Assembly: GCA_937934295.1 (NCBI GenBank)
Contig: CALHAI010000008.1
Coordinates: 32,998 to 96,997 of the forward strand
DNA from: an uncultured Blastocatellia bacterium
GTDB taxonomy: Bacteria; Acidobacteriota; Blastocatellia; HR10
Length of the DNA: 64,000 nt
Direction: 5' to 3'
Positions within the stretch are counted from its first letter, which is position 1. The number at the start of each line of letters is the position of its first letter. The translations under genes and the position numbers were made by a program. The notes beneath the pieces are model-generated. The model made no database searches. It had not been told where the DNA came from and saw nothing but the letters and a program-made list of their open reading frames with translations. Positions 496 to 53,608 of this stretch are shown in pieces.

Positions 496-545
496 GCCCG
501 CCTCATGGTGGTTCTGCCCAAAACCGATCCTCAGGAGGGCGTGCG

Positions 546-1955
546 ATGCAGGATCATGAGCTGGCTTTCCTCTCGATTCGTGAATTGGCTCAACTCCTCC
601 GATCCCGGCGTCTGTCTCCGGTCGAACTCACGCGGCTTTATCTGGAGCGCCTGGAGCGCCTGGGACCGAAACTGGGCGCGGTCGTCACGATCACTCACGA
701 GTTGGCTCTGGAACATGCGCGCCGTGCGGAACGGGAGATCCTGCGCGGCCAATATCGCGGGTTGCTGCACGGCATCCCGTATGGGGTGAAAGACTTGCTG
801 GCGACCCGAGGCATTCCCACGACATGGGGCGCCGCCCCGTATCGAAATCAGGTCTTCGACTACGATGCGACGGTCGTCCGACGTCTTCAGCGAGCAGGCG
901 CCATCTTGGTGGCGAAGCTCGCGATGGTCGAATTGGCTGGCGGCATGGGGTACAACACGGCGGATGCCTCCTTCACCGGACCGGGACGCACGCCGTGGAA
1001 CCCCGATTACTGGAGCGGAGGGTCATCTTCGGGATCAGGAGCGGCGGTCGCGGCCGGCCTGGTCGCTTTCGCCATTGGCTCGGAGACCTCGGGCTCGATC
1101 CTCACGCCCGCGGCCTTTTGCGGCATCTCGGGTTTACGCCCAACTTATGGACTTGTGAGCCGACACGGCGCCATGGCACTCTGTTGGACGCTCGACAAAC
1201 TCGGCCCTATGTGCCGCACGGCCGACGACTGCGGGATCGTGCTCGCCGCGATCTCCGGCAAAGACCCCAAAGATCCCTCGAGCGTCGCGCGAAAATTCAC
1301 GTATTCGACGCCGCTTCTGCCCACCCGGCGACTGCGCGTGGGCATCGTCAAGGGCGCACTGGAGCGCGTGCAACCCGAAGTGCGAGAGAACTTCGAGGCA
1401 GCCGTCGAAGTCCTCAAGAGATACGCCACGATTGATCCCGAAGTCGCCTTGCCCGATCTCCCTTATGGGCAAGTCGTCGGGATCATCGTCAACGCCGAGG
1501 GCGCGAGCGCTTTCCGAGATCTGATCGAAGGCGGGCGCCTGGCGGAGCTGCAGAATCCGCGCGATCGGATTGGAGGGTATGCGGGGATGACGGTCCTAGC
1601 AGTGGATTATCTGCAGGCCCAACGCGTCCGCGTTCGGATTCGCCAAGCCCTCGACGAAGTGCTCTCCCGATACGATGCTGTGATCGCGCCGACGCGCGCG
1701 ACCGTCGCCTATCCGATCGGCGTGGAATTCGAGCGCGCGTATCCGGGTATGGGGGGCGGCCCCGCGCTCATTCCAGCGGGCAACGCGGCTGGCGTCCCGG
1801 CGCTCTCCATCCCCAACGGATTCGGACAAGCCGGACTTCCGACGGCGCTCCAACTGATGGGGCGCGCCTTCAGTGAGGCCACGCTCATCGCCCTCGCCAA
1901 CGCCTATCAACGGGAGACCGACTGGCACCGCCGACGGCCTCCCCTTGAGGCCTGA
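546..1955 (+). CDS. Amidase-signature family amidase (GatA/AtzE-like)
   Basis: GVKDLL (catalytic Lys), GGSSSGS and GSETSGSI (Ser-cisSer) signatures. Start chosen at ATG 546 after GGAGGG; the ORF is open from 492. Confidence 0.92.
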   Translation: MQDHELAFLSIRELAQLLRSRRLSPVELTRLYLERLERLGPKLGAVVTITHELALEHARRAEREILRGQYRGLLHGIPYGVKDLLATRGIPTTWGAAPYRNQVFDYDATVVRRLQRAGAILVAKLAMVELAGGMGYNTADASFTGPGRTPWNPDYWSGGSSSGSGAAVAAGLVAFAIGSETSGSILTPAAFCGISGLRPTYGLVSRHGAMALCWTLDKLGPMCRTADDCGIVLAAISGKDPKDPSSVARKFTYSTPLLPTRRLRVGIVKGALERVQPEVRENFEAAVEVLKRYATIDPEVALPDLPYGQVVGIIVNAEGASAFRDLIEGGRLAELQNPRDRIGGYAGMTVLAVDYLQAQRVRVRIRQALDEVLSRYDAVIAPTRATVAYPIGVEFERAYPGMGGGPALIPAGNAAGVPALSIPNGFGQAGLPTALQLMGRAFSEATLIALANAYQRETDWHRRRPPLEA

Positions 1956-2568: not shown

Positions 2569-4587
2569 TCATGCGGATGTCCAGCGCTCGAAGAAGCGCT
2601 CCACGTCTTCGATCCGCGTCGTGATCGGACACGAGGGGAGGCTCTGCAGGAAGACCGCGCCGTACCCCTTCGTGCGAATCCGAGGATCGAGGATCGAGAG
2701 GACGCCTCGATCGGTTCGACTGCGGATCAATCGCCCCAGTCCTTGCTTGAGCATGATGACAGCCTGCGGGACGGCATACTCGTAAAACGGATCACCGCCG
2801 CTTTGCTCGATATAACGTTGGCGTGCCGCCACAATGGGATCGGTCGGGACAGCGAAGGGCAACCGATCAATGATGACGCAGCTTAAGGCCTCCCCTTGCA
2901 CGTCCACACCTTGCCAAAAGCTCGACGTGGCGAACAGGACCGAATGCGGCGTCGTGCGGAACCGTGCGAGGAGGCCGGATTTCGAACCCTGTCCTTGGAC
3001 GAAACAAGGGAACGGCACGCGACGTCGGGTACGCTCGTACATCTCTACCATCGGTTGGATCGCCGTGCAGAGGACGAAGGCGCGCCCCCGCGTCACCTGC
3101 AACAGCCTCACGATCTCTTCAACGGCGGCCTCCGTGAATTCCGGGCTTCGCGGATCCGGCATGTGCGGGGGGAGGTAGAGGATCGCTTGTTCGGCATAAT
3201 CGAAATGCGAGGGGACGATCAGCTCCCGCGCGTGGCGAATCCCAAGGCGAGATCGAATGAAGTGAAAGCTTCCACCGCTCGTTAAGGTCGCTGACGTCAA
3301 GATCACCGTGCGCACGCGATCGAAGAGTCGCTCGGCCAAGATCTCGGAGACGTCAATGGGCGTCGCCTGAAGGAAAATCCCACGTCCGCGCCGCTCATAC
3401 CAGCGGACGAACTGCGGATCGTGCGGCACGAGGATGAAGTCGAGATCGGCCCGTATCTGCGCCGTCCGACGGATGAGGGCTTCGACTTCCGGCGGTGGAT
3501 CCTTCACCGCCGCGAGCGTCGCCTCCAGGAGCGAGAGGGCATTCCGAAGCGCGAGGAAACTCTCCCCCGCGCGCGTCACCGGGAGCACTTCCTCCCCCTC
3601 CCGAGCGACATCCAGGGGGAGCCCCTCCTCGGTCACCTCCGCGCGAAAGAGGAGATCCGGCTCCAGGGGATATCGCCCCTCGGGTCTGCCATCGCTCAAG
3701 AAATGCGCCCAGAAATTCTCAGCCCGTTGCTGCACGCGCAAGGTGACGCGCATCAGCTCCGCCGCAGCCGCCGTATCCGTGATCGGAAGATTTTGCACGT
3801 CGCGGATCAATTCGGCCACGCGATAATTGCTCACCTGTGCCCCGAAATATTCCGAAGCGATCTCCTCCAATTCATGCGCCTCATCGAAGATGACGATCCC
3901 ATAATCCGGGATCACCGCGCCATAGTCGTTCCCCCGCAACGCGAGATCGGCGAAGAACAGATGATGGTTGACGATCACGATGTCCGCTTTCAGGGCGCGC
4001 TCGCGCATCTTCGTGATGAAGCACGCTTCATACTCCGGGCATTTTTGTCCGAGGCAGATCTCCGAGCGCGCATCGATCGCCGACCAAAAGCCCAGATTCT
4101 CCGGGAGATCCACCAGCTCCGCGCGATCTCCCGTCTCCGACCGGAAGGCCCACTGCCGAATCTCATCGAAATAGCGCACGTCGTCCAGATCAGCGAGAAT
4201 CGGTTGCGCTTCGGCTTTCTTCAAGCGGTAGAGGCAGACGTAATTCGATCGGCCTTTCATGTACGCGACGCGCAGCTTCCGCCCAAGGGCTTTCTCCAAG
4301 AAAGGGACGTCCTTGAGGAAGAGCTGCTCTTGCAGATTCTTCGTCCCTGTCGAGATGATGAGGCGCTCGGAGGCTGCCAGCGCCGGGATGAGATAGGCGA
4401 GCGTCTTCCCCGTCCCCGTCCCCGCTTCGACGAGCAAATGCTCCCCTTCGAGGATCGCGCGATAGACAGCCTCGGCCATCTGGATCTGCCCGGGCCGATA
4501 TTCGTACTGCGGGTGATGCTTCCCCAGAAGCCCTCGTTCCCCGAAGACGTCCTCCATGCGGACGATCTCTTCGTGCTGTCGGCTCAT
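2569..4587 (-). CDS. ATP-dependent DNA helicase, DinG/YoaA family
   Basis: Q motif YRPGQ, Walker A EAGTGTGKT, Fe-S cysteines (CLYR...CLGQKCPEYEAC), DEAH box, SATL, QGLGRLIRS. Confidence 0.93.
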   Translation of the reverse strand: MSRQHEEIVRMEDVFGERGLLGKHHPQYEYRPGQIQMAEAVYRAILEGEHLLVEAGTGTGKTLAYLIPALAASERLIISTGTKNLQEQLFLKDVPFLEKALGRKLRVAYMKGRSNYVCLYRLKKAEAQPILADLDDVRYFDEIRQWAFRSETGDRAELVDLPENLGFWSAIDARSEICLGQKCPEYEACFITKMRERALKADIVIVNHHLFFADLALRGNDYGAVIPDYGIVIFDEAHELEEIASEYFGAQVSNYRVAELIRDVQNLPITDTAAAAELMRVTLRVQQRAENFWAHFLSDGRPEGRYPLEPDLLFRAEVTEEGLPLDVAREGEEVLPVTRAGESFLALRNALSLLEATLAAVKDPPPEVEALIRRTAQIRADLDFILVPHDPQFVRWYERRGRGIFLQATPIDVSEILAERLFDRVRTVILTSATLTSGGSFHFIRSRLGIRHARELIVPSHFDYAEQAILYLPPHMPDPRSPEFTEAAVEEIVRLLQVTRGRAFVLCTAIQPMVEMYERTRRRVPFPCFVQGQGSKSGLLARFRTTPHSVLFATSSFWQGVDVQGEALSCVIIDRLPFAVPTDPIVAARQRYIEQSGGDPFYEYAVPQAVIMLKQGLGRLIRSRTDRGVLSILDPRIRTKGYGAVFLQSLPSCPITTRIEDVERFFERWTSA

Positions 4588-4618
4588 GGCCGATCCCTCA
4601 ACGTCAGACAAGAGGCGG

Positions 4619-5899
4619 TCACAGCTCAGGAGGTTGACGCAGCCGATGCGGATAGAGCGGGAATTGTTCGGTCAGTTCCAGCACCCGCCGTCGGACCGAG
4701 CGTTGAACCTCTTCGCTCTCGGGCTGATCCAAGACCTCGGCGATCCACTGCGCGATCTTTCGCATCTCGGGCTCTTTCATCCCCCGCGTGGTGACCGCCG
4801 GCGTCCCCAAGCGAATGCCGCTGGCGATCATCGGTGGCTGCGTGTCGAAGGGAATGGTGTTCTTATTCACGGTGATCCCCGCGCGCTCCAAAGCGCTCTC
4901 GGCCTGCTTTCCCGTCAAGCCTCGGGAGAAGACGTCCACAAGCACCAGGTGCGTATCCGTCCCTCCGGAGACGATCCGATAGCCCGCCCGCGCCAGCTCC
5001 TCTGCCAAGACGCGAGCATTTTTGATGACCTGCTCCTGATACGTGCGGAACTCGGGCTGCATGGCCTCCTTGAAGCACACGGCCTTGGCCGCGATGATGT
5101 GAACGTGAGGTCCGCCCTGCACGCAGGGGAAGACGGCACGATCAATCTCCCGCGCGTACTTCTCCTTGCACAGGATCAGGCCCGCCCGCGGGCCGCGCAA
5201 TGTCTTATGCGTCGTCGTCGTCACGAAGTCACAGCAGGGAACGGGGCTCGGATGTAGGCCCGTCGCCACGAATCCGGCGATATGCGCGATGTCGGCCATC
5301 ACGACGGCCCCGACCTCGTGAGCGATCGCCGCGATGCGCTCGAAATCAATGACGCGCGGATAGGCGCTCGCTCCGCAGACGAGCATTTTTGGCCGATGCT
5401 CGTGGGCCAACCGCTCCAACTCCTCATAGTCGATCTGCTCCGTCTCGCGGTTCACCCCATAGGGGATCACGCGGAAGTACTTCCCTGAGAAATTCAACGG
5501 ATGCCCGTGCGTCAGATGCCCTCCGTGCGAGAGATTCATCCCGAGGATCGTATCTCCGGGCTGCAGCACGGCGATGTAGACGGCCATGTTCGCTTGCGAG
5601 CCCGAATACGGCTGCACGTTCACGTGCTCGGCGCCGAAGAGTTGCTTCGCCCGCTGGATCGCCAGCGACTCCACGACGTCCACGAATTCGCATCCCCCAT
5701 AGTAGCGCTTGCGCGGATACCCCTCGGCATACTTGTTCGTGAAGACCGATCCCATGGCTTCGAGGACGGCCTCGCTGACGAAATTCTCCGAGGCGATCAA
5801 TTCCAAACCCCGCGCCTGTCGCTCCGTCTCCTGGAGGATGGCCTCGGCGATCTCCGGGTCCACCACGCGCAGCGGCCGTGTATGCCAATCGTTCATCAT
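4619..5899 (-). CDS. glyA: Serine hydroxymethyltransferase
   Basis: [33 protein letters not shown] (PLP Lys), [26 protein letters not shown] before ATG 5899. Confidence 0.98.
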
Positions 5900-5986
5900 G
5901 ACGACTCCTTGCTTGCGGGATTCCCGCACCTTCGCATGAGACGGAATCTTACCGCAGGGCCGAGCACACCTTCAAGCAGGGCTTCG

Positions 5987-6913
5987 TCAGGAACGCCGCA
6001 CCACGACGCGCCGCCGCTCTCCGCCCTTTCCCAAATATGCGCGAGACAACTCCAGGAAAGTCCGAAGCGGCTCCGACGGCGTATCCTCTTTCCGATAGGC
6101 GACGCCCAATTCCCACCGACTCTTCAAGCCCCGAATGGGGAGCGCGCGCAGAAGTCCCGCGTGCACCTCTCGCTGAACCATGAGCCACGGGAGAATACTC
6201 ACCCCCAGACCGACCTCCACCATCTTCTTGATCGCTTCATCGCGATTCAGTTCCATGGCGACATGCGGGCGAACCCCCGCATGCTCGAAGAAGAGATCAA
6301 TGATCCGCCGCCGATTCCCTCCCCGCTCCCCGAGGATCAACGGCTCAGCGGCCAATTGCATGACCGTCACCTCTCGCGCCTGAGCTAAAGGATGCCCAGG
6401 AGGGACGACCGCCACCAACCGATCGCCGTAGAGCGATTCGGTCTGAAGCAGCGGCGCTTCGACCGGCAGGGAGATCAAACCGACATCCAGCCGATGCTCC
6501 AGAAGGCGTCGGATGATGGCTTCGCTCGTGCCGGCGAAGACGACCAGATCCAGGAGCGGAAAGCGCTTCTTCAACTCGCTGAGGATCTCCGGCAGCGGAT
6601 GAATGGCGATCATCGTCGAGGCCGTTCCCACACGCAGCGTGATCCGCTGCTCCTCAGCGAGCGCGGCGATCTCCGAACGCGCCAAATCGCACGCGCTCAA
6701 AATCGCCTGAGCATGTTTGAGCAATGCCCGCCCGGCGGACGTGAGCGTGGCCCGCTTGCGCACCCGCGCGAAGAGCTTTGTCCCCAGTTCCTCCTCCAAT
6801 GCTTTGATGTGAAGGCTCACGGCTGCTTGCGAGAGATTCACGCGGCGTCCGGCGAGCGTAAAGCTCCCCGTCTCGGCCACGGCTCGGAAGGTGCGCAGGT
6901 GTCGCAACTCCAT
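5987..6913 (-). CDS. LysR-family transcriptional regulator
   Basis: MELRHLRTF...GSFTLAG...LSQAAVSLHIKALEEELG HTH plus a PBP2 effector domain. Divergent from the SIS operon. Confidence 0.95.
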   Translation of the reverse strand: MELRHLRTFRAVAETGSFTLAGRRVNLSQAAVSLHIKALEEELGTKLFARVRKRATLTSAGRALLKHAQAILSACDLARSEIAALAEEQRITLRVGTASTMIAIHPLPEILSELKKRFPLLDLVVFAGTSEAIIRRLLEHRLDVGLISLPVEAPLLQTESLYGDRLVAVVPPGHPLAQAREVTVMQLAAEPLILGERGGNRRRIIDLFFEHAGVRPHVAMELNRDEAIKKMVEVGLGVSILPWLMVQREVHAGLLRALPIRGLKSRWELGVAYRKEDTPSEPLRTFLELSRAYLGKGGERRRVVVRRS

Positions 6914-7042
6914 GGCATTCCCCCTTGCATCAGCAATCTTCATGCATCTCATTAAAACTCTCAGTTTCCCCGCACCTTGCCTATTGTACTAGAATTCCCA
7001 CGTGAGCGCCGAAGATGCGCCGGACGCATGAGACGCGGGTGG

Positions 7043-8101
7043 ATGATGAAGGAAGGGTTGGAAGGAACATTCACATACCGGGAGATTTATCGCCAACCGG
7101 GAGCGCTGCGCGAGACGTTGCGGCGCGCGCCTTCCCGCTTCGCGCGCGTGGCGTCAATAGGTCCTCTGAGGCACTTCACGGAGGTGCTCTTCACCGGGTG
7201 CGGATCATCCTATCACATCGCCCTCTATGCGGCGCACGCCTGGGGAACGCTGCTGGGGCTTCGCGCGCGCGCGCTCCCTGCGTCTGAAATCCTGAACTTC
7301 CTGAAGGCGCATCTCTATGCGGGGGCGCGACCTTTGCTCTTCGCCATCTCGCGCAGCGGCGGGACTGATGAGACCGTTCTCGCGGCAGAACGAGTGAAGG
7401 CGACTGTTGAGGCTACGGTCATCGGCGTGACGATTGAGCCCGAATGTCCGCTCGGGCGTACGGCTGACATACATTTGTCCTTCTCCGAATGCCCCGAACA
7501 GAGCTTGGTCACCACGGGATCGCTGACGTGCATGATGCTTGGCCTGTTGCTTTTGGCCGACGCCTTCGGCGGAGGAACGCTTCAGGCCGAGGCGGCCGCT
7601 CTCCCTCAGGAGGTCGCGCAGAGCCTCCAAGAGAACGAACGCTTCCTGCGCACCTACGCCGAAGATCGCGCTCTCGCTCGTCTCATCTTCTTGGGGTCTG
7701 GTCCCTTCTATGCATTGGCGGCGGAAGCGGCTCTCAAGGTGATCGAGATGGCGCTCACCCCCGCCCACTACTATCCCACGTTGGAATTTCGACACGGGCC
7801 GCATCTGCTCCTCTCGCCGGAGACGCTGCTGGTGATCTTTCCGGCCGAGGCGGAGGGCCCGTATGTGAATCGAGTGCTCGAGGAGGCGCGCGCAGCCCAG
7901 GCGCGCCCCCTTCTCATCAGCGCTCGGGCGATGGAGACGTCGGCACCGCAGCTCATTCTCGGAGGTCGCGTGAGCGAACTCCTGCGCCCCATCCTCTTCG
8001 CTCACCTCATCCAGCAATTGGCTTTCTGGAGGGCTGCGGCCGCCGGAGTGAACCCGGATGCCCCGCCGCGATTGACGCGTATCGTGCGATGGAACGGATG
8101 A
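7043..8101 (+). CDS. Double-SIS-domain sugar-phosphate deaminase/deglycase (AgaS / NagB-II / FrlB-like)
   Basis: TYREIYRQP, FTGCGSSYH, ISRSGGT, LGSG...AAEAALKVIEM, EFRHGP, C-terminal NPDAP. No glutaminase domain, so it is not GlmS. Confidence 0.85.
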   Translation: MMKEGLEGTFTYREIYRQPGALRETLRRAPSRFARVASIGPLRHFTEVLFTGCGSSYHIALYAAHAWGTLLGLRARALPASEILNFLKAHLYAGARPLLFAISRSGGTDETVLAAERVKATVEATVIGVTIEPECPLGRTADIHLSFSECPEQSLVTTGSLTCMMLGLLLLADAFGGGTLQAEAAALPQEVAQSLQENERFLRTYAEDRALARLIFLGSGPFYALAAEAALKVIEMALTPAHYYPTLEFRHGPHLLLSPETLLVIFPAEAEGPYVNRVLEEARAAQARPLLISARAMETSAPQLILGGRVSELLRPILFAHLIQQLAFWRAAAAGVNPDAPPRLTRIVRWNG

Positions 8102-9177
8102 TGAGCGACGCGCTCGAATCGTCGCATGCCTTCCGAAGACGCGAGCCGGATGTGATGCCCGAGGGACAACCGGTGTTCCTCGCCGGCGTCGATGGTGGGG
8201 GGACGAAAACGACGGCCCTGGTCGCCGATGAACGACTGACCATCCTCGGAGAGGGACATTCCGGTCCCTCGAACTTTTTGCGCGTCGGCGTGGAAGTGGC
8301 CGTCACCGCCATCTTGGAGGCTCTTGAGGACGCCTGCCGCCGGGCTGGGCTCGTGCCCGCGAATCTCCGCGCGCTGGGGATCGGCTTGGCGGGAATCGCC
8401 CACCCCGCACATTATCGGCGCATGCGGGAAGCGCTCCTCCGAGCGCTGGTCGAGCGCTTGGCCTACGGCACGCGCGACCCCCAACAGGTGGAGAACATCG
8501 TGCTGACGACCGATGCCGAGATCGCGCTCTACGGAGCGACCGATGGTCAACCGGGCGTCGTCATCATCTCCGGGACGGGCTCGATCGCGTACGGGGTGAA
8601 CGCGCGGGGACAGAAAGCACGCTCTGGAGGCTGGGGCCCGACCTTCGGCGATGAAGGGAGCGGATACGACATCGCGCGGCGCGCGTTGACGGCGGTCGCC
8701 TCGGCCTACGATGGACGGATGCCGCCGACGCTTTTGACCGAACGGGTCTGTCGCTATTTCGGCATCGAGAGCCCGGCCGAACTGCCGCGCGTCATTTATG
8801 GGGACGCGACGAGCCCCAACATCGCCCCCTTGAGCGAAGTCGTCATTCAAGCCGCTCGCGAAGGGGATGCTGTCGCTCGAGAGATTCTGCGCGAGGCGGG
8901 CTGGGAATTGGCGCGAACGGCCATCGCCGTCATTAAACGCTTGCGCCTGCAGCAGGAGGCCTTTCGCGTCTCTTACGTCGGCGGCGTCTTCTCCGCCGGA
9001 GAATTGATTCTGGAGCCGATTCGCCAGAAGATCCGGGAGGTCGCTCCGAAGGCCGAACTCAGCCCTCCGCGCTTTCCGCCCGCTGTGGGCGCGCTTAAGC
9101 TAGCGCTCGCGCGGCTCGGACTTTCCGACCGAGAATCCGAAGCCGCCTGCCCGCTGCCCAAACTGGGCGTGCGGTGA
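8098..9177 (+). CDS. BadF/BadG/BcrA/BcrD-family amino-sugar kinase (GlcNAc/GlcN/MurNAc kinase-like)
   Basis: GVDGGGTKT, TDAEIAL, ISGTGS, GGWG...GDEGSG motifs. ATGA overlap with the SIS gene; alternative start 8155. Confidence 0.88.
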   Translation: MMSDALESSHAFRRREPDVMPEGQPVFLAGVDGGGTKTTALVADERLTILGEGHSGPSNFLRVGVEVAVTAILEALEDACRRAGLVPANLRALGIGLAGIAHPAHYRRMREALLRALVERLAYGTRDPQQVENIVLTTDAEIALYGATDGQPGVVIISGTGSIAYGVNARGQKARSGGWGPTFGDEGSGYDIARRALTAVASAYDGRMPPTLLTERVCRYFGIESPAELPRVIYGDATSPNIAPLSEVVIQAAREGDAVAREILREAGWELARTAIAVIKRLRLQQEAFRVSYVGGVFSAGELILEPIRQKIREVAPKAELSPPRFPPAVGALKLALARLGLSDRESEAACPLPKLGVR

Positions 9178-10586
9178 GCGCTCTTGAGGAAGAACCGATG
9201 GGGTGGGAGATCGCCGGATATCGAGAGATCAAGGGCGGTCACCTGCATTTGGATGGCGTGAGCGCTCGACGCTTGGCCGAACACTACGGGACGCCGCTTT
9301 TCGTCTTCTCCGAATCGCGCGTGAAGGCTAACGTCCGCGAGCTTCTGGAGAGCGCTCGGCGCGTCCATCCGCGCGTGAGGCTCTGCTATGCGGCGAAAGC
9401 GAACTCACTGCTGGCCATCCTCCGAGCCGTTCGCGAAGCGGGAGCGGACGTTGAGGTCAACAGCGGCGGCGAACTCTACAAAGCCCTGCGCGCCGGTTTT
9501 CGGCCCGAGCAGATCGTCTTCAATGGCGTGAGCAAGACGTTCGAGGAACTGGAGGAAGCGATTCGCGCCGAGATCGATGCCATCAACGTGGATTCGCTGG
9601 CGGAGTTGGAGATGATCGCGACCCTCGCCGAGCGCCTCGGCAAACGCGCCAATGTCGCGCTCCGCCTAGTCCCGGAGATCGAGACGGGCTCACACGCGGG
9701 ATTGCAAACGGCTCTGCTCACCTCGAAATTCGGCCTCTCGCCGTCGGAGATCCCCAAGGGCATTCAGCATGCGCTGGCCCATTCTCGCTCGATCAATCTC
9801 GTCGGGCTTCATGTGCATGTCGGCTCGCAGACGCCGACGCGCGAGCCTTACGCTCGCGCTTTCGCGATGATGTGGCGACTGGCCCTCGCCCTCTATCGTG
9901 AGACCGGCCATCGCTTGCGTCATGTGAACCTGGGAGGCGGCCTGCCCGTCATCTACGCGCACGACGATCGCGTGGTGGCGGAGGTTGGCGAACGCGGACA
10001 GCTCTTTCGCGCCGCATGGGACATCGGCGCGCTTCTGCGCGCAATGCTGGAGACAGCTCTTGAGGTCGCCAAAGACCGTGCGGCGCGCGACCTGCTCGAG
10101 GACCTGGAGATCCTCTTCGAGCCGGGGCGACGTGTGATCGCGGATGCCGGGACGCTCCTGGTGACGATCCGCAATCTCAAGACGCGGTCGGAGACGAGGG
10201 ATACGTGGCTTTTTCTCGATGCGGGGACGGAACTGCTCCCCTCGATGAGCCACTACAAGTGGTACTATCACGTCATCTCGGCCGATCGAACGGCCGAGCC
10301 ACATGAGACCCCATATAAATTGGCGGGCCCGCTGTGCGATGGGGGCGACGTGTATTTCGACATCGAAGGTACGGCGCAGCTCCCCGCTTATCGCTTCCTT
10401 CCCGAAGGCCTGCGTATCGGAAATGTGCTCGCCGTCTTGGACGTCGGCGCATATACGGTCGCGCAGATGTCGAACTACAACGGTCGCCCATTTCCGGCCA
10501 TCCTGTTGATCACCTCCTCCGGAGATGTGCGACCCATTCGTCCTCGCCAGAGCTATGAGGATCTGGTGAGAGGCGAATCGGTGTGA
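9174..10586 (+). CDS. Fold-type III PLP-dependent decarboxylase, D-ornithine/D-lysine decarboxylase (DokD)-like member of the Orn/Lys/Arg/DAP decarboxylase family
   Basis: YAAKAN (PLP Lys), SKFG, HVHVGSQ, GGG, EPGR, KLAGPLCDGGD, DVGAY. Lacks the LysA-typical RPxxY and CES motifs. Family is certain; the subfamily call rests on recalled resemblance to Salmonella DokD. Confidence 0.8.
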   Translation: MSALEEEPMGWEIAGYREIKGGHLHLDGVSARRLAEHYGTPLFVFSESRVKANVRELLESARRVHPRVRLCYAAKANSLLAILRAVREAGADVEVNSGGELYKALRAGFRPEQIVFNGVSKTFEELEEAIRAEIDAINVDSLAELEMIATLAERLGKRANVALRLVPEIETGSHAGLQTALLTSKFGLSPSEIPKGIQHALAHSRSINLVGLHVHVGSQTPTREPYARAFAMMWRLALALYRETGHRLRHVNLGGGLPVIYAHDDRVVAEVGERGQLFRAAWDIGALLRAMLETALEVAKDRAARDLLEDLEILFEPGRRVIADAGTLLVTIRNLKTRSETRDTWLFLDAGTELLPSMSHYKWYYHVISADRTAEPHETPYKLAGPLCDGGDVYFDIEGTAQLPAYRFLPEGLRIGNVLAVLDVGAYTVAQMSNYNGRPFPAILLITSSGDVRPIRPRQSYEDLVRGESV

Positions 10587-10601
10587 GAATCGCGCACGAC
10601 G

Positions 10602-12107
10602 ATGCGACTTCACGCGCTCGATCTGGCGATCATCGCCGCTTACTTCGTGGGGACGACGCTCCTCGGGATGTGGCTCGGGCGCGGACAGCGCACGACGAGC
10701 GAGTATTTCGTCAGCGGGCGGAATCTCCCGTGGTGGGCCATCGCGCTCTCGATCGTGGCGACCGAGACGAGCACGGTCACCTTCATCAGTGTGCCCGGAT
10801 ATGCCTATATGAAGGATGCCAACGGTGAGGGAGGTGATCTGACTTTCCTGCAGCTCGCGTGCGGATACCTGATCGGGCGCCTCATCATCAGCGTCCTGTT
10901 CATCCCCCTCTACTTTCGCGGGGAACTTCTGACGGCCTATCAGGTCCTGGCTCACCGATTCGGTGAACGCGCGCGCCGCGCAGCCTCCGGACTCTTCCTC
11001 CTCACGCGGAGTTTGGCCGATGGCTTTCGACTCTTCGCCACGGCCATTGTGCTCGCGGCGGTGACCGGATGGAGCGATCCGACTTCGATCTTATTGATCG
11101 GTGGGGCGACGATCTTCTACACGTATGTGGGGGGACAACGAGCCGTCATTTGGACGGACGTCATGCAGTTCGGCGTGTATATGGTCGGGGCCTTAGCCGC
11201 CCTGGATGTGCTTTTGGCACGTCTTCCCGGCGGTTGGGAGGCAGCCTGGGCGATGGCCGAAGCGCAGGGGAAATGGCGAGTCTTTGATTTCACGTGGGAC
11301 CTGACCCGAAGCTATACCTTCTGGTCGGGGATCATCGGCGGCGCCTTCCTGACGATGGCCACGCACGGGACCGATCAACTCATCGTGCAGCGCTACTTGG
11401 CGAGCCGCACGGCGCGACAGGCAACGGCCGCGCTCTTGGTGAGCGCACTCATCGTCCTGCTGCAGTTCTTCCTCTTCTTGCTCCTCGGCGTCCTCCTCTT
11501 CGTCTTCTATGCGCACTTTCCGCCGTCGGTGCCGTTCACCAAGAGCGATCGCATCTTCCCATATTTCATCGTGCATGAGCTGCCGATGGGGCTTGTGGGG
11601 CTCGTCATCGCGGCCATCTTCGCTGCGGCGATGTCGACGCTCTCCAGCTCCTTGAACTCTTCGGCGGCGGCAGTGGTGACGGATTTCTATCGCCCCCTTC
11701 GGGGTGAGGGTTTCTCGGAAGCCCACTATCTGCGCGTCGCTCGCAGACTGACGCTCGGTTGGGGGATCGTCCAGATCAGCGTAGCGCTTGTCGCCCGCGC
11801 GCTTTCGCAGCGCGTCGTGGACGAGGTCCTGGCGATCGCGGCCTTCACCAACGGAGCGATCCTCGGCGTCTTCTTCCTCGGCACGCTCGCGGGGCGCGTC
11901 GGCGAATCGGCGGCATTGGTGGGCATGGTCAGTGGGCTTTTGGTCATGCTGTATATCAGATTCTTCACCGCAATCGCCTGGCCGTGGTTCGTCGTGATCG
12001 GATCGGCGACGACGGTGATCACGGGCTTGGCGAGCCAAACGCTGAGAGAGATCGCTATCCGAAGGGTTGAACTGACGCGGATCGAGCGATCCCGAGCACA
12101 TCGCTGA
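10602..12107 (+). CDS. Sodium:solute symporter (SSS) family transporter
   Basis: About 13 hydrophobic segments; [42 protein letters not shown] motifs. Confidence 0.93.
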
Positions 12108-12115
12108 AGATCGTC

Positions 12116-13879
12116 ATGAAGCTGACGCAGAACGACTGGATCATTATCGTAGCGTACCTCGTCCTCTCGCTCGGGATCGGCCTCGCGTACACGCGACGAG
12201 CGGGTCAGAGTGTGGCCGAGTACTTCCTCTCAGGGCGCCACTTGCCGTGGTGGTTGGCCGGGACTTCGATGGTCGCGACGACCTTCGCCGCCGATACGCC
12301 CTTAGCCGTCACTGAGATGGTTGCCCGGCACGGCGTGGCGGGCAATTGGCTCTGGTGGAATTTCGTCATGAGCGGCATGCTCACGGTCTTCTTGTACGCC
12401 CGGCTCTGGCGGCGCGCCGGGGTGATGACGGATGTGGAGTTCATCGAGCTGCGATATGCTGGGCGGGCGGCCGCTTTCCTGCGGGGGTTTCGAGCGATCT
12501 ACCTCGGGCTCCTCATGAACAGCCTCATCATGGGCTGGGTGACTCTCGGCATGGCGAAGGTCATCGGCCTGTCGCTCAACATCGGGAAGTTGGAGGCGGC
12601 CTTCCTCTGCTTGGGGATCACAGCCTTTTATTCCCTGCTCTCGGGACTCTGGGGGGTCGTCGTCACGGATGCCGTTCAGTTTGTGATCGCAATGGTAGGG
12701 GCGATCGCGCTCGCCGTCTTCGCTCTGGAAGTCGTTGGGGGAATATCCGGGCTCATGGCGCGACTCCCGGAGCACTTCGGGAGCGTGGAAGCGGCGATCG
12801 CCGTCTGGCCGGGATGGGGATCAGCGTGGCTTCCCGCGGAGACGCTCCTCGTGTACATCGGTCTCCAGTGGTGGGCGTCTTGGTATCCGGGAGCGGAACC
12901 GGGAGGCGGGGGGTATATCGCGCAGCGCATCTTCTCGACCCGAGATGAGCGGCACGGCGTTTTGGCCACACTCTGGTTCAACATCGCTCACTACACGCTA
13001 AGGCCCTGGCCGTGGATTCTGGTCGCCCTCTCGGCCGTCGTCCTCTATCCCCATTTGCGCATGACTGATCCGACAGCCCTCTATGTGCGCGTGATGGTGG
13101 ATCATCTGCCTCCGATCTGGCGCGGATTGCTCCTCGCTTCCTTCGCGGCAGCGTACATGTCGACGATCGCGACGCATTTGAATTGGGGCACGTCGTATCT
13201 CATCAACGACTTCTATCGCCGTTTCGTCCGCCCTTCGGCAGATGAGCGGCATTATGTCCACGTCTCGCGCGTGGCGACGGGGCTCTTGGCGCTCATTTCG
13301 GTCATCGTGACGCTGAACCTACAGAGGATCACCGGGGCCTGGGAGTTGCTGCTCGGCTTAGGGGCAGGGACCGGACTCGTCTATTTGCTGCGCTGGTTCT
13401 GGTGGCGGATCAACGCCTGGTCGGAGATCGCTGCCATGACGACGGCTCTTACGGCCACCGTGGGACTGAAGATCGCGCGTCCCTTCTCCGAGGACGATCC
13501 CTTGCTCTACGCCAAATCCATGCTCGTGACCGCCACCGTGACGACGATAGTATGGCTGTTGGTGACTTGGCTCACCCCAGCCGAGCCCGAGGCGAAGCTG
13601 AGGGAGTTTTACGAGCGTGTTCGTCCGGGCGGCCCTGGTTGGGCTCCTCTCGCCCGACGACTCAACGTTCCGGCCCAGAACTCGCTCGCCCCGTATCTGG
13701 TGAGTTGGGTCCTCGGATGCGTGCTCATCTACAGCGTCCTCTTCGGGATCGGCGCTCTGATCTTTGGCCAATGGACCAGGGCTCTCCTCTCGCTCGGCGT
13801 CGGGATTTTCGCCGGTGTCGGAGCTCTCAAGCCCTTCGCTCGCCACCAAAATCCCCAAAAGGGGTTATGCTCATCATGA
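12116..13879 (+). CDS. Sodium:solute symporter (SSS) family transporter, a different subfamily from the upstream one
   Basis: EYFLSGRHLPWW, SMVATTFAADTP, GGGGYIAQR, AAYMSTIATHLNWG motifs; multi-TM. Confidence 0.93.
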   Translation: MKLTQNDWIIIVAYLVLSLGIGLAYTRRAGQSVAEYFLSGRHLPWWLAGTSMVATTFAADTPLAVTEMVARHGVAGNWLWWNFVMSGMLTVFLYARLWRRAGVMTDVEFIELRYAGRAAAFLRGFRAIYLGLLMNSLIMGWVTLGMAKVIGLSLNIGKLEAAFLCLGITAFYSLLSGLWGVVVTDAVQFVIAMVGAIALAVFALEVVGGISGLMARLPEHFGSVEAAIAVWPGWGSAWLPAETLLVYIGLQWWASWYPGAEPGGGGYIAQRIFSTRDERHGVLATLWFNIAHYTLRPWPWILVALSAVVLYPHLRMTDPTALYVRVMVDHLPPIWRGLLLASFAAAYMSTIATHLNWGTSYLINDFYRRFVRPSADERHYVHVSRVATGLLALISVIVTLNLQRITGAWELLLGLGAGTGLVYLLRWFWWRINAWSEIAAMTTALTATVGLKIARPFSEDDPLLYAKSMLVTATVTTIVWLLVTWLTPAEPEAKLREFYERVRPGGPGWAPLARRLNVPAQNSLAPYLVSWVLGCVLIYSVLFGIGALIFGQWTRALLSLGVGIFAGVGALKPFARHQNPQKGLCSS

Positions 13880-13903
13880 GGATCATTAAAGGAGGGGTAC
13901 GGT

Positions 13904-13961
13904 TTCCGAAGATTTGGAAATTTCTTCCAAATTTTTGGAAGCACCTCTCTGATATTTGGAG
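13904..13961. promoter_or_regulatory. Tandem palindromic operator/enhancer-like sites (TTCC-N8-GGAA twice plus a half-conserved third copy, 21-bp period)
   Basis: TTCCGAAGATTTGGAA at 13904-13919 and TTCCAAATTTTTGGAA at 13925-13940. TTTGGA recurs at 13913, 13934 and 13955. AT-rich patch in a GC-rich background. Confidence 0.6.
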
Positions 13962-14036
13962 AGGGGGGAGGCCCTCGTTGGCTCTATCCTGCTCTCACTG
14001 AGCAGCTTAGACAGATGCGGGAGCTCGCCTGTGTCG

Positions 14037-14052
14037 CGGAACGCAAGTTGCT
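14037..14052 (+). promoter_or_regulatory. Putative sigma54 (-24/-12) promoter for the TonB-dependent receptor
   Basis: CGGAACG-CAAG-TTGCT: GG at 14038-39 and GC at 14050-51 with canonical spacing; 2 mismatches to TGGCACG-N4-TTGCW. Confidence 0.5.
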
Positions 14053-14152
14053 TAAAAATCACTACAGCATGACGTAAGACCGGCATGATCTTTCACATTC
14101 CAGGGCCATGCAGCGATGCGAGGGCCCTGTGAGACGACCTTGGAGGAGGCTT

Positions 14153-17100
14153 ATGAAGAGATTCGTTGTGGGCGTGACTTGTTTAGCGCTTTTGGTCTCT
14201 GGACTGACGATGACGTTTGGCCAGGGGACGACCTCACGAGTCGTGGGCGTGGTGACCGATCCGATGGGAGCTGTGGTCCCTGATGCTGTCGTCACGATCA
14301 CCAACGAGGCGACGCGCGTCTCCTACACGACGCGCACGACATCGGCAGGAACCTACGTCTTCGACGCGATCCCTATTGGAACCTACACGGTGACGGTGGA
14401 GAAAGAGGGATTCAAGAAGTTCGTCTCCACGGGGAACGTCCTGACGATCGGTCAGCCGATGACCGTCAACGTGAGGCTCGAAGTCGGGCAGATCGCGGAA
14501 GCGGTGGAGGTAACGGGAGCTGCTGAGCTGGTTCAGACGAGCACGTCCGGGAACTTTGGGAATCTCGTGACCCAACAGGCGATCTTGAATCTGCCGATCG
14601 TTGGCGTTCGAGGGCGCAATCCCCTGAACTTCGTCCTCTTTCAGCCAGGCGTGGTCTCGGGAGCGAACACAGGAGGAGGCGTCCACGTTCATGGTGCGCG
14701 CGATCGCGCCTGGAACTTCACGCTCGATGGCATTGACATCAATGAGACGAGTGCGGGCGGGTCGAACTTCTCGCCGCTGCGCACGAATCCCGACACGCTG
14801 GCCGAATTCCGCGTCCTGACGAGCAATTTCACGGCCGAGTATGGACGCAACAGTGGCGGGCAGGTCACGATGGTGACCCGCTCGGGCACCAATGAGTTCC
14901 ACGGCACGCTCTTTTGGTTTTACCAAACCCCGCGTCTCCACGCCAACGAGTACGAGAATAACTTGAACGACCTACCGAAGCGTCAATTCGTCCAACACAT
15001 CCCGGGCTTCAGTCTCGGTGGACCGATCATCCGTAACAGGACCTTCTTCTTCACGAATCTTCAGGTCTTGCGCACGCGCGAGACCCGCATCGTCACGAGC
15101 ACCGTCTATACGGCCGAAGCGCGGCGCGGTCTCTTCCGCTACGTCCGAGGTGGGCGGAACCTTCCGGCGGGCGTCCCGGGCGCCTCGGTGGACTTCAATG
15201 GGAATCCGCTGCCGGGCCTCAACATCGGCGTTTACGATATCGCGGCGAATGATCCGGCTGGTTACGGCCTCGATCCGACGATCAAGCGCTTGATTGACAT
15301 GACCCCGCTGCCCAACAACTTCGCCGTTGGGGACGGTCTGAACGTCGCCGGATTCACCTGGTCGCCCATTCAGCGAGAAGAGCAGGAGGACTTCGTCCTG
15401 CGGATTGACCATGTCTTCAATGAGCGGCATACGCTCTTCGGGCGATGGGCGCATGGGCGTCAGGATACGCTGGGCGACTTCGTCAACAGCGGATGGGCAC
15501 GCTTCCCGAACACGCCGCGCTTTGTTGATACGACGCGCGATCCGCGGAACCTGGCGATCAACTGGCGGTGGACGCCGACGGCCCGCATGACGAACGAGTT
15601 CGTCGTTGGGATGAATCGGTTCACCTTCAGCTTCAACAATCCCGATCCGAATCCGCAAACGCCCCCCTTCGTCCTGAACAACGTGACGACGCCGCTGCCG
15701 GGGACGGATCCCTTCTTCTACAACGCGCGCGCGCTGACGACCTATCAACTGGTGGACAACTTCACCTACGTTCGCGGGGCACATACGTTCAAGGCAGGCG
15801 TCAACTTCCGTTACCAGCGGCACATTGATCGGCGGACGTCAGTGGCCGGGTTGAACACACGCCTCTCGGCTAATCTGAGCACAGCGGTGAACACGGTGGA
15901 TCCGGTCACCTTCAAGCTCCCGGCGGACATCAACACGACCTTCGATCGCCCGCGCCTACAGGCCGCGATCAACGATCTGCTCGGGCGCGTTGGGACGCTC
16001 AGCCGTGCCTTCGTCGCCATCAGCGATGACCAATATGGACCACCGGGGACGACGTTCAGCTTCGATGCCCGCTATCCCGAATACGACTTCTACTGGCAGG
16101 ATACTTGGAAGGTTCGTCCGAACTTGACGTTCGATCTCGGCCTGCGATGGGAGATCAAGCTCTCGCCGAGTGACCCGCGCAATCGCATCCTTCGCCCGGA
16201 GCGCCCCATGGTCTTGGGCGCGCCGCCCAGCGATACGATTCGCTGGGTGAAGGGAGAGCTGTATGATGACGATTGGAATAACTTCGGTCCCACGATCGGC
16301 TTCGCCTGGGATCCGTTCGGCACGGGGAAGACCTCGCTCCGAGCAAACTATCGCCTGGCGTACGATCGTGTGCCGACCTTTCTCTTCTCGTCCTTCATCT
16401 TCCCCACGATGCCGGGGATCGCTCTGCCGGTGATCAATCAGGAATTCGGGCAGCGCGGCGGGCGAATTCGCGATGGGCTGCCTGTGCTCGCGCCTCCGGC
16501 CGGTCTGACGCCCGCGCAACTGCGACAGCCGGCCCCCTTCTCGACAGCGAGCATCCATGTCGTGGATCCGAGCTTGCGCTCGGCGAAGACGAACATGTGG
16601 GGCTTGAGCATTCAGCGCGAGCTGATGTGGAAGACTGTGCTCGAGCTGAATTACATCGGGCGCCGTGGCGTCGGATTGCTCGGTGCCTACAACGTCAACC
16701 AGGCGGAGATCTTCCAGAACGGATTCCTGGAGGCCTTCCGCATCGTGCAGGCCGGTGGAGAGAGCGATCTCATCAACCGCTTGCTCGAGAAGGACTCGCG
16801 GCGGCGCGCTGGGGAGACCGGTTCGCAAATGCTGCGGCGGCTCTTCGCTTCGACGCTGAACTTGAATTCGGTGGCGGCTCTGGCGGCATCTTTGGCGACG
16901 CGCACGGAGGCGGGTCAACCCCTAGTTGTCGCCAGCGGTTTCAGCCCCTTCTTCTTCTTCCCCTTCCCGCAGTTCGCCGGTGGCCTGGTTGTCCTCGATA
17001 GCAATGACTTCTCGACCTACCACGCCTTCGAAGCACAGATCACACGGCAGCTCAGCCGCGGCTTGAGCTTCCAGTTCAGCTACACCTTCGCCAAATCGCT

Positions 17101-17782
17101 CGACACGCGCTCCTTCGATCCCACGTTCACAACGGCCGCGGGAGGAACCGCCCAATCGGCCTCGAGCACACCCTTTGATCTCCGCAATCGGCGATTGAAC
17201 TACGCGCGGTCAGACTTCGACCGTCGGCACTCCTTCCAGGGGTATTGGACGTGGGATCTCCCCTTCGGCTTGGGTCAGCGCTGGGGGTCTAATTGGCATC
17301 CCGCGCTGAATCATATCGCCGGAGGCTGGCAGGTTGCCGGCATCGTGCGCTGGCATTCGGGTCGTCCTTTCACCGTCTACTCCGGGGCGAATACCCTGAG
17401 CAACGTCGTCTCTTCCCCGGCCGATTGCAACGGGTGCACGCCGGACATGGGGCGCTTGATCATGGAGGCGGGAACCTTCTATTACTTCGACGCTCAACAG
17501 CGTGGACTCTTCTCGATTCCGGCTCCCGGGCGACTCGGGAACACCGGGCGTAACTTCTTCACCGGACCGTCGTTCTTCACCCTCGACCTCACCATCGGGA
17601 AGCAGTTCCGCGTCACCGAGCGTCAAAACCTCCAATTCCGGTTGGAGATTCAGAACGCGACCAACACGCCCTCATTCGGGTTCCCGACGGCGGTGGTCAC
17701 CAGCGCCGTCTTCGGCCGGGTGCGGGATAGCGTCGTCAGCAGCTCGCGGAAGATGCAACTCGCTTTGAAGTACAACTTCTGA
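14153..17782 (+). CDS. TonB-dependent receptor, Oar-like, with N-terminal carboxypeptidase-regulatory-like domain
   Basis: RBS GGAGGAGG, signal peptide, GVVTDPMGAVVP...Y domain, plug motif FRVLTSNFTAEYGRNSGGQV, C-terminal LKYNF. Confidence 0.93.
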   Translation: MKRFVVGVTCLALLVSGLTMTFGQGTTSRVVGVVTDPMGAVVPDAVVTITNEATRVSYTTRTTSAGTYVFDAIPIGTYTVTVEKEGFKKFVSTGNVLTIGQPMTVNVRLEVGQIAEAVEVTGAAELVQTSTSGNFGNLVTQQAILNLPIVGVRGRNPLNFVLFQPGVVSGANTGGGVHVHGARDRAWNFTLDGIDINETSAGGSNFSPLRTNPDTLAEFRVLTSNFTAEYGRNSGGQVTMVTRSGTNEFHGTLFWFYQTPRLHANEYENNLNDLPKRQFVQHIPGFSLGGPIIRNRTFFFTNLQVLRTRETRIVTSTVYTAEARRGLFRYVRGGRNLPAGVPGASVDFNGNPLPGLNIGVYDIAANDPAGYGLDPTIKRLIDMTPLPNNFAVGDGLNVAGFTWSPIQREEQEDFVLRIDHVFNERHTLFGRWAHGRQDTLGDFVNSGWARFPNTPRFVDTTRDPRNLAINWRWTPTARMTNEFVVGMNRFTFSFNNPDPNPQTPPFVLNNVTTPLPGTDPFFYNARALTTYQLVDNFTYVRGAHTFKAGVNFRYQRHIDRRTSVAGLNTRLSANLSTAVNTVDPVTFKLPADINTTFDRPRLQAAINDLLGRVGTLSRAFVAISDDQYGPPGTTFSFDARYPEYDFYWQDTWKVRPNLTFDLGLRWEIKLSPSDPRNRILRPERPMVLGAPPSDTIRWVKGELYDDDWNNFGPTIGFAWDPFGTGKTSLRANYRLAYDRVPTFLFSSFIFPTMPGIALPVINQEFGQRGGRIRDGLPVLAPPAGLTPAQLRQPAPFSTASIHVVDPSLRSAKTNMWGLSIQRELMWKTVLELNYIGRRGVGLLGAYNVNQAEIFQNGFLEAFRIVQAGGESDLINRLLEKDSRRRAGETGSQMLRRLFASTLNLNSVAALAASLATRTEAGQPLVVASGFSPFFFFPFPQFAGGLVVLDSNDFSTYHAFEAQITRQLSRGLSFQFSYTFAKSLDTRSFDPTFTTAAGGTAQSASSTPFDLRNRRLNYARSDFDRRHSFQGYWTWDLPFGLGQRWGSNWHPALNHIAGGWQVAGIVRWHSGRPFTVYSGANTLSNVVSSPADCNGCTPDMGRLIMEAGTFYYFDAQQRGLFSIPAPGRLGNTGRNFFTGPSFFTLDLTIGKQFRVTERQNLQFRLEIQNATNTPSFGFPTAVVTSAVFGRVRDSVVSSSRKMQLALKYNF

Positions 17783-17791
17783 GAGCTCTTC

Positions 17792-17828
17792 GGGTGCGGG
17801 AGGGAGATTCGCCTCCCCTCCCGCGCCC
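17792..17828 (+). terminator. GC-rich stem-loop after the receptor gene (terminator or mRNA stabiliser)
   Basis: GGGTGCGGGAGGGAG-ATTCGC-CTCCCCTCCCGCGCCC imperfect inverted repeat; no clear U-tract. Confidence 0.45.
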
Positions 17829-17910
17829 CTACCACGGCGAAAGCCTTCGACAATCCCCCACTCGCTTCAGGAAGACGCCTCTGCGCTTTCGGTGAGCGCG
17901 AACGGGCGTA

Positions 17911-17919
17911 TGCTATAAT
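17911..17919 (+). promoter_or_regulatory. Extended -10 promoter of hslO
   Basis: TGCTATAAT, ending 21 nt before ATG 17941, with RBS GAGGTG in between. Confidence 0.6.
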
Positions 17920-17940
17920 GGGCGATGCGAGGTGCGCGCT

Positions 17941-18864
17941 ATGGAGAAGTCGAGGGATCGGCTTGTTCGAGCAACGGCGTGCGATGGCATGGTCCGATGT
18001 GTCGCGGCGATCACGACGAATCTGGTGGATGAAGCGAGCCGCCGGCATCGCGTCTCACCAACAGTCTCGGCCGCTCTCGGGCGCACGCTGACGGCAGGCG
18101 TGCTCTTGGGGAGCTTGCTGAAGGATACGGAGAAGGTGACGATCCTCCTGCAGTGCACGGGCCCGATCGGCGGCATTACCGTCGAAGCTGATGCGCATGG
18201 AAACGTCCGTGGGTATGCGAGGAATCCGCAGGTGGATCTGCCGCTTACAGAGAGGAAGAAATTCGATGTTCGCGGCATCATCGGTGGCGGGATGCTTTAC
18301 GTCTTGCGCGAGGCCGATTATTATCGCACGGGCCTTTTCCGCGATCCCTATTGCGGTTCGGTCCCCATCGTCTCAGGGGAGATCGCCGAGGACGTCGCGT
18401 ACTATTTGACTCAGTCGGAGCAGGTTCCTTCGGCTGTCTCATTGGGCGTCTTCGTCCTCCCAGATGAGGAACGCTTCTTTCGCGTCGAGGCCGCCGGAGG
18501 ATTCCTCATCCAAACGTTCCCAGGCGTCGCGGACGACGTCCTGCGGAATCTCGAAGCTTCAGTACTGGCCGCCCCTTATATCACCGAGATGATCCGTCGG
18601 GGAATGGGGCCACGCGAGATCCTACAGACAGCGCTGGGCGACTATGCCTTCGAGATCCTCGAGGAGAAGGAGGTGCGCTTCGCCTGTACGTGTTCGTCCG
18701 AGCGGGCACGCCGTATCTTAGCGGCTCTGGATCCGGAGGAATTGCGCGCGATGCTCCGAGAGGACGGAGGAGCGGAAATGACCTGCCATTTCTGCAATGC
18801 GATGTATCGCTTCGACGTGACGGAACTGCGCGCATTGCTTCCTGAGGGCGAGGCGACGCACTAG
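17941..18864 (+). CDS. hslO: Hsp33 redox-regulated chaperone
   Basis: ALGRTLT, SGEIAEDVAYYLTQSEQVPS, AAGGFLIQ and the C-terminal zinc motif CTC...CHFC. Confidence 0.95.
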   Translation: MEKSRDRLVRATACDGMVRCVAAITTNLVDEASRRHRVSPTVSAALGRTLTAGVLLGSLLKDTEKVTILLQCTGPIGGITVEADAHGNVRGYARNPQVDLPLTERKKFDVRGIIGGGMLYVLREADYYRTGLFRDPYCGSVPIVSGEIAEDVAYYLTQSEQVPSAVSLGVFVLPDEERFFRVEAAGGFLIQTFPGVADDVLRNLEASVLAAPYITEMIRRGMGPREILQTALGDYAFEILEEKEVRFACTCSSERARRILAALDPEELRAMLREDGGAEMTCHFCNAMYRFDVTELRALLPEGEATH

Positions 18865-53531: not shown

Positions 53532-53608
53532 GCACCCGTAGCTCAGTTGGATAGAGCGTCGGACTACGAATCCGAAGGCCGCAGGTTCAAGTCCTGCCGG
53601 GTGCACCA
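53532..53608 (+). tRNA. tRNA-Arg (anticodon ACG)
   Basis: 77 nt. Acceptor GCACCCG/CGGGTGC, D-loop AGTTGGATA, anticodon arm TCGGA-CTACGAA-TCCGA, T-loop TTCAAGT, encoded CCA. Confidence 0.97.

Follow-up and report, generated by a model that had tools for sequence, protein, structure and literature searches.

Which substrate does the decarboxylase gene at positions 9174 to 10586 of this DNA serve, and does the name LysA fit its product? The stretch analyzed here (the window) comprises 64,000 nucleotides of contig CALHAI010000008.1 from the genome assembly (GCA_937934295.1) of an uncultured Blastocatellia bacterium, phylum Acidobacteriota, and the gene encodes a fold-III (alanine-racemase-fold) pyridoxal 5'-phosphate (PLP)-dependent decarboxylase. 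Annotation pipelines call it LysA, the meso-diaminopimelate (DAP) decarboxylase, because it passes the cut-off of the lysA equivalog model TIGR01048 (316.5 versus 297.9 bits). An initial annotation suspected a mis-annotation trap and proposed a D-ornithine/D-lysine decarboxylase (DokD): pipelines do use the LysA name, as it supposed, but that name may describe the function correctly, if on mistaken grounds. We found that the enzyme descends from the DokD lineage and that it is almost always the only LysA homolog where it occurs. At about even chances, it works as a meso-DAP decarboxylase, serving lysine biosynthesis and the salvage of cell-wall DAP.

Membership in the DokD lineage

The open reading frame (ORF) and the motifs quoted in the initial annotation are all present in the sequence, and the DokD likeness that it described is borne out: a HMMER alignment to Salmonella enterica DokD (PDB 6n2h) shows an identical KLAGPLCDGGD, together with DAGYSVLSDSQHFDW, GGGIPVPYKYDD, and SYEDMV in DokD (SYEDLV, residues 460 to 465, in the window's enzyme). 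The LysA motifs said to be replaced do stand at those sites in LysA of E. coli (1knw), M. jannaschii (1twi), and A. aeolicus (2p3e), all of which have RPxxY (as part of DAG.N..(I/M)RP..Y) and CE(S/T). In a phmmer search the best PDB match was DokD 6n2h (1.4e-80; best LysA, 1.1e-66); the protein shares 37% of its residues with DokD, as against 34.7% with LysA of M. jannaschii and 29% with that of E. coli. The NCBIfam DokD model NF052544 gives 336.2 bits, higher than the TIGR01048 score albeit below its own equivalog cut-off of 700. A Foldseek search with the AlphaFold model (pLDDT 91.4) returned DokD chains as its first 15 matches (TM score, 0.85 to 0.87), followed by the M. jannaschii DAP decarboxylase (0.82 to 0.83).

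We placed the protein in a FastTree phylogeny of 165 sequences, made up of 50%-identity representatives of the whole family, the Blastocatellia homologs, DokD, and three solved LysA proteins. The tree parts into a canonical group, every member of which has the specificity-helix Arg and Tyr and a C-E loop, and a "C-D" group of 53 tips (support, 0.98), which holds DokD, a tight Blastocatellia clade (support, 1.0), and members from Chloroflexota, Roseospira, and Jordarchaeales; the gene context of these DokD-like outgroup representatives (Chloroflexota, Roseospira marina, and Jordarchaeales) was uninformative. Alignment and phylogeny place the decarboxylase with DokD and not with bona fide LysA, and PDB match, NCBIfam bits, fold, and tree all agree on this. 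It belongs by descent to the DokD lineage, which is marked by the C-D loop and a long form of ~470 residues. That it is nevertheless an ordinary canonical LysA, whose DokD-like motifs reflect chance or lineage noise, we find barely credible: it passes the TIGR01048 cut-off, and nearly all of its homologs are named "diaminopimelate decarboxylase" at NCBI and JGI (a few JGI entries read D-ornithine/D-lysine decarboxylase), but the tree sets it apart from all canonical LysA proteins, and the R-P and C-E-S signatures that are invariant in the canonical group are missing.

The longest ORF carries the Pfam domains Orn_Arg_deC_N and Orn_DAP_Arg_deC. Its GTG start at 9174 overlaps the stop codon of the upstream kinase gene (GTGA). 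The true start is probably the ATG at 9198, giving 462 residues, because GAGGAAG sits 6 to 12 nucleotides 5' of it and the closest homologs measure 462 residues. The Schiff-base lysine, Lys75, is unchanged across 53 clade sequences.

The distal substrate pocket

In enzymes of this kind, a specificity helix (a 3-10 helix) reads the distal end of the substrate, using Asp for basic substrates and Arg for the DAP carboxylate, and contact with the side-chain amine is made by the residue that follows the catalytic Cys (PMC7857480). For DokD, residue roles were taken from alignment and from PMC7857480, with numbering validated through Y430. The position of LysA's distal Arg is D356 in DokD and S357 here, that of LysA's Tyr is F360 in DokD and Y361 here, and the residue next to it is D361 in DokD and K362 here, so that LysA's Arg-Pro-x-x-Tyr becomes Ser-Met-x-x-Tyr: the Tyr is present and the Arg absent. 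In 2019, Phillips et al. reportedly described an Asp of DokD as taking the place of LysA's distal Arg. The catalytic Cys loop is C387-D388-G389 in DokD and C388-D389-G390 here, versus C-E-S/T in canonical LysA.

Residues 356 to 360 form a short helix in the AlphaFold model. Across the 53 clade sequences there is no variation at Ser357 or Tyr361 and almost none at Lys362; many members carry C-D-S, retaining LysA's Ser, where the window's enzyme has C-D-G. At the site of LysA's Arg, Glu or Asp predominates in the rest of the C-D group. The Blastocatellia enzyme thus represents a third state, with DokD's Cys loop but with neither DokD's two acidic residues nor LysA's Arg. Specificity for D-ornithine or D-lysine cannot be deduced from such a pocket. 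We also considered Lys362 as a clade-specific compensation for the lost Arg; this idea is weakened by the Lys, His, or Arg that is common at that position in DokD-group members with Glu or Asp at the Arg position. The surrounding helix segment varies as well: the fifth position of the DAG motif (window 10218-10232, residues 349 to 353) is Glu in families f1 and f3 (T-E-L or Y-E-L) and Asn or Ser in other clade members (Asn in LysA), and residue 356 is Pro in the window's own genus and Leu in the others.

If the initial annotation were right about specificity, this would be a true D-ornithine/D-lysine (or D-arginine) decarboxylase. The neighboring permeases would supply it with D-amino acids for conversion to putrescine or cadaverine, and most Blastocatellia would be lysine auxotrophs. 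DokD is indeed the best PDB, NCBIfam, and fold match and lies in the same group of the tree, the C-D-G-G-D loop is identical, permease genes adjoin as in the Salmonella operon (PMC13397332), and lysine auxotrophy is known in the class. However, both helix acids are gone and Phe360 is Tyr, the DokD model gives 336 bits where 700 are required, no racemase gene lies nearby, and the near-universal, single-copy spread of the enzyme, which excludes canonical LysA and tracks DapB, is unlike that of an accessory catabolic enzyme. Comparative genomics points elsewhere, and we consider this specificity unlikely.

As a dimeric fold-III PLP decarboxylase, the enzyme would act on a D-configured α-carbon, as LysA and DokD both do. 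The two acidic specificity-helix residues that suit DokD to a cationic side chain are lost, and the Asp after the catalytic Cys, the predicted binder of the distal amine, is kept, as are the Tyr and the EPGR Arg common to LysA; we infer a pocket that takes a zwitterionic distal end, namely, that of meso-DAP.

Distribution in Blastocatellia and the source of lysine

In the window's genome, which is 94.5% complete, the decarboxylase is the sole TIGR01048 match over the cut-off (the other match is SpeA-like), and the same is true of near-complete genomes of the same genus. We extended this to a census of the class by running a hidden Markov model (HMM) of the clade on 201 Blastocatellia genomes with a completeness of 90% or more: the clade enzyme is present in 171, a canonical-type match alone in 15, and neither in the other 15. 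A second match occurs in ~15 of the 171 carriers, most of which look like split genes. The enzyme is near-universal in five families (f1, f4, f5, f6, and f8), and a sample of 151 Acidobacteriota genomes contained no clade member from any other class. It is confined to Blastocatellia, is almost always the only LysA homolog, and is nearly exclusive with canonical LysA.

DapB and DapF co-occur with the enzyme. DapF was found in 41 of 41 relatives, and DapB occurs in 167 of the 171 carriers versus 12 of the 30 non-carriers (Fisher p = 2e-14, not corrected for phylogeny). A search for LysX in the window's genome and in 10 other carriers, among them Pyrinomonas methylaliphatogenes K22, found none. 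The aminoadipate (LysW/LysX) route was rejected as a source of lysine on the absence of LysX from these 11 genomes and on LysW-like ORFs that stay below the cut-off; that of the window's genome is not clustered with genes of the pathway. In genomic terms the decarboxylase stands where LysA would: it is the sole family member, the DAP pathway is present, and no alternative lysine route was seen. We infer that it would complete lysine biosynthesis in most Blastocatellia. Strain K22, whose only LysA homolog is the clade enzyme, can reportedly meet its nitrogen needs with nitrate, ammonium, or urea (PMC4644332), which suggests lysine prototrophy. The GAL08 and Eichorst et al. papers give no information on lysine.

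Several observations on these genes stand apart. DapB matches in the class cover only positions ~70 to 270 of the model. A dapB gene lies on the same contig (C8:28906-29490), ~13 kb upstream of the decarboxylase, and ~18 kb from it in a genome of the same genus (G001); this linkage is loose and probably incidental. Some lineages have DapF but no detectable DapB (the Chloracidobacterium-like genomes G023, G027, and G031; G028; G039; and others), and some of these also lack a LysA homolog. A LysW-like zinc-ribbon ORF (MPSGICPECDGEV...EEDEEEW) on another contig of the window's genome (C21:47115-47261), outside the window and with no LysX partner, may be an orphan carrier-like protein; sub-cut-off LysW-like matches occur in 36 of 41 Blastocatellia genomes.

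Gene neighborhood and comparison with known systems

The link to sugar catabolism noted in the initial annotation is both real and conserved. In the window, a divergent LysR gene is followed by genes for an SIS deaminase, a BadF kinase, the decarboxylase, and two sodium:solute symporters (SSS), with overlapping or near-abutting junctions (Table 1).

Table 1. Features of the decarboxylase gene and its surroundings (positions in the window)
Feature	Position	Strand	Remarks
DokD-lineage fold-III PLP decarboxylase	9174..10586	+	470 residues as longest ORF
Lys75 codon	9396..9398	+	PLP Schiff-base lysine by alignment (CYAAKANS); equivalent to DokD K80 and E. coli LysA K54
Glycine-rich phosphate-binding loop, NLGGGLPVIYAHDD	9927..9968	+	residues 252-265; DokD-like (DokD: GGGIPVPYKYDD)
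Specificity-helix segment, DAGTELLPSMSHYKWYY	10218..10268	+	residues 349-365; from alignment, model helix, and PMC7857480
Catalytic-Cys loop, KLAGPLCDGGD	10317..10349	+	residues 382-392; C388-D389-G390
LysR-family regulator	5987..6952	-	divergent
Double-SIS protein, GlmD-type	6977..8101	+	best solved relatives are glucosamine 6-phosphate (GlcN-6-P) deaminases
BadF/BcrAD-family sugar kinase	8098..9177	+	best solved relative is the N-acetylmuramic acid (MurNAc)/N-acetylglucosamine (GlcNAc) kinase 8zo3
Sodium:solute symporter 1	10602..12107	+	15 nucleotides downstream of the decarboxylase gene
Sodium:solute symporter 2	12116..13879	+	
Large outer-membrane TonB-dependent-receptor-like protein	14108..17782	+	1224 residues; directly after the symporters
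Amidase-signature protein	492-1955		upstream of the cluster; assigned by eye
DinG-like helicase	2569-4611	-	upstream of the cluster; assigned by eye
Serine hydroxymethyltransferase	4619-5929	-	upstream of the cluster; assigned by eye

The arrangement varies by family. In families other than the window's own, MurQ occupies the place of the SIS protein, and the gene order may be LysR, kinase, MurQ (400 bits, over the cut-off), SSS, glycoside hydrolase family 3 (GH3), and decarboxylase; or kinase, MurQ, and decarboxylase; or decarboxylase with an APC amino-acid permease immediately behind it. Two relatives (L073 and L115) have kinase, MurQ, decarboxylase, APC permease, and GH3 in one co-directional string, which by its gene content would be a peptidoglycan-utilization operon with an amino-acid branch. 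The kinase-MurQ/SIS-decarboxylase combination is found at 22 of 80 species loci and the decarboxylase-permease pair at 27; more than half of these 80 loci have no sugar genes nearby. No racemase gene was found in the window's cluster or among the recurrent neighbors at 20 + 80 loci, where permeases are present. Homologs of the TonB-dependent-receptor-like protein, for which an NCBIfam search gave no match, lie within 3 to 8 kb of the decarboxylase gene in 15 of 80 relatives.

The LysR gene stays with the sugar cluster in relatives, even in those without the decarboxylase. Family f2, which has no clade gene and has canonical LysA elsewhere in the genome, keeps a MurQ/GH3/SSS/kinase/LysR cluster; thus, the sugar pathway can do without the decarboxylase. 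We considered whether canonical LysA had replaced the decarboxylase in situ in this family, where canonical LysA is present and the decarboxylase missing, but this was not seen, as the canonical gene lies elsewhere. As for signals in the DNA, an Rfam scan found no lysine riboswitch or other element near the cluster (the window's only hit is a tRNA at 53532-53605), and scans of 5800-18200 for sigma-70 promoters and terminators yielded nothing over shuffled expectation. The sequencing runs containing the stretch are DNA runs only.

This linkage could also mean that the enzyme performs a dedicated step in an operon for scavenging necromass or cell walls, decarboxylating some other D-center compound that is set free from peptidoglycan; candidates are the free D-center of DAP in L-Ala-γ-D-Glu-mDAP, amidated DAP, lanthionine, and D-Glu. 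The association with the MurNAc/GlcNAc kinase, MurQ or GlcN-6-P deaminase, GH3, and SSS/APC permeases survives several rearrangements, and the small Ser and, in the window's own genus, Gly390 would widen the distal pocket relative to LysA. Yet the f2 sugar cluster works without the gene, most loci lack sugar genes nearby, the sequence hints at no particular alternative substrate, and the missing LysA is left unexplained; we regard a substrate of this kind as rather unlikely. It seems more doubtful still that the enzyme has the specificity of neither LysA nor DokD, using a wall-derived D-center substrate other than free meso-DAP, with most Blastocatellia being auxotrophs that live on scavenged wall; decarboxylation of L-Ala-γ-D-Glu-mDAP, for example, would change the peptide from the DAP type to the Lys type. 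The remaining probability belongs to substrates beyond those considered.

The most economical account, which we hold to be about evenly poised between right and wrong, is that a DokD-lineage decarboxylase took over the role of LysA in most Blastocatellia and was wired into an amino-sugar scavenging or recycling operon. There it would also convert DAP from scavenged or recycled peptidoglycan into lysine, a salvage role proposed because the gene appears to be cotranscribed with genes for the MurNAc/GlcNAc kinase, the SIS enzyme (MurQ or GlcN-6-P deaminase), permeases, and GH3. Family membership, residue states, distribution, and gene linkage are established here; the substrate and the physiological role are proposals. 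A number of points weigh against a DAP decarboxylase. The Arg that binds the DAP carboxylate, present in every canonical-group sequence of the tree, is Ser here, and C-E-S has its Glu replaced by Asp. In the tree the enzyme falls with DokD and with no characterized DAP decarboxylase, and Phillips et al. reportedly found in 2017 that DokD itself does not accept DAP. The company of transporters, catabolic genes, and a LysR regulator suggests a catabolic or salvage operon more than one for housekeeping biosynthesis. One genome (G038) has both the clade enzyme and canonical LysA, several Blastocatellia lineages have no LysA homolog at all, and the nitrogen-source report for K22 is no proof of growth in lysine-free medium. 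Finally, Chloracidobacterium thermophilum, which lacks both the clade enzyme and DapB, is an experimental lysine auxotroph (PMC4376005).

The clade is uncharacterized, has a distinct distal site, dominates one class, and sits in a gene context undescribed for LysA or DokD. If it is a DAP decarboxylase, the last step of lysine synthesis in this Acidobacteriota class, a major one in soils and hot springs, falls to a DokD-lineage enzyme, which would be a second solution to DAP binding, without the Arg thought essential for its recognition; HMM-based LysA calls would then conceal a distinct enzyme type, and renaming the protein DokD from its motifs would falsely imply lysine auxotrophy. If it is not, most Blastocatellia lack LysA, and metabolic models of abundant soil bacteria change. 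Either way, the conserved linkage of the decarboxylase to MurNAc/GlcNAc catabolism and to amino-acid permeases indicates an operon for scavenging peptidoglycan that includes an amino-acid branch, so far undescribed.

Among known systems, the closest is DokD (DOKDC) of S. enterica (STM2360; PDB 6n2h, 8d2y, and others; NF052544), which shares the fold, the ~470-residue architecture, and the clade, as well as GGG(I/L)PV.Y..DD, SYED(M/L)V, an identical KLAGPLCDGGD, Tyr430 (Y435 here), and adjacent permease genes. The Blastocatellia enzyme differs in having Ser, Tyr, and Lys at D356, F360, and D361 and in scoring less than half the equivalog cut-off. It is also a class-wide, single-copy enzyme that replaces LysA, whereas DokD is encoded by an accessory gene beside LysA. 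The Salmonella operon includes ornithine racemase and amino-acid transporter homologs (PMC13397332), while the Blastocatellia gene has no ornithine racemase nearby.

LysA (TIGR01048; 1twi, 1knw, and 2p3e) is likewise a fold-III decarboxylase specific for a D-center, and its PLP-binding Lys, His, EPGR, Tyr of RPxxY, and Tyr of YN.RP are conserved here. The genomic role appears equivalent, as a sole copy with DapB and DapF. The Blastocatellia enzyme nonetheless forms a separate clade, with Ser-Met for the specificity-helix Arg-Pro and C-D-G for C-E-S, and its gene is embedded in amino-sugar and transport operons.

The third comparison is with MurK-MurQ(-MurT) clusters, such as that with Clostridium acetobutylicum MurK (PDB 8zo3), which share the BadF-type kinase, the sodium:solute symporters, and, in other Blastocatellia families, MurQ. 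Tannerella forsythia has a MurT/MurK/MurQ cluster for MurNAc utilization. To our knowledge, the MurNAc utilization clusters described so far include no decarboxylase and no amino-acid permease; the cluster in the window's own genus differs further in having a GlmD-type deaminase in place of MurQ.

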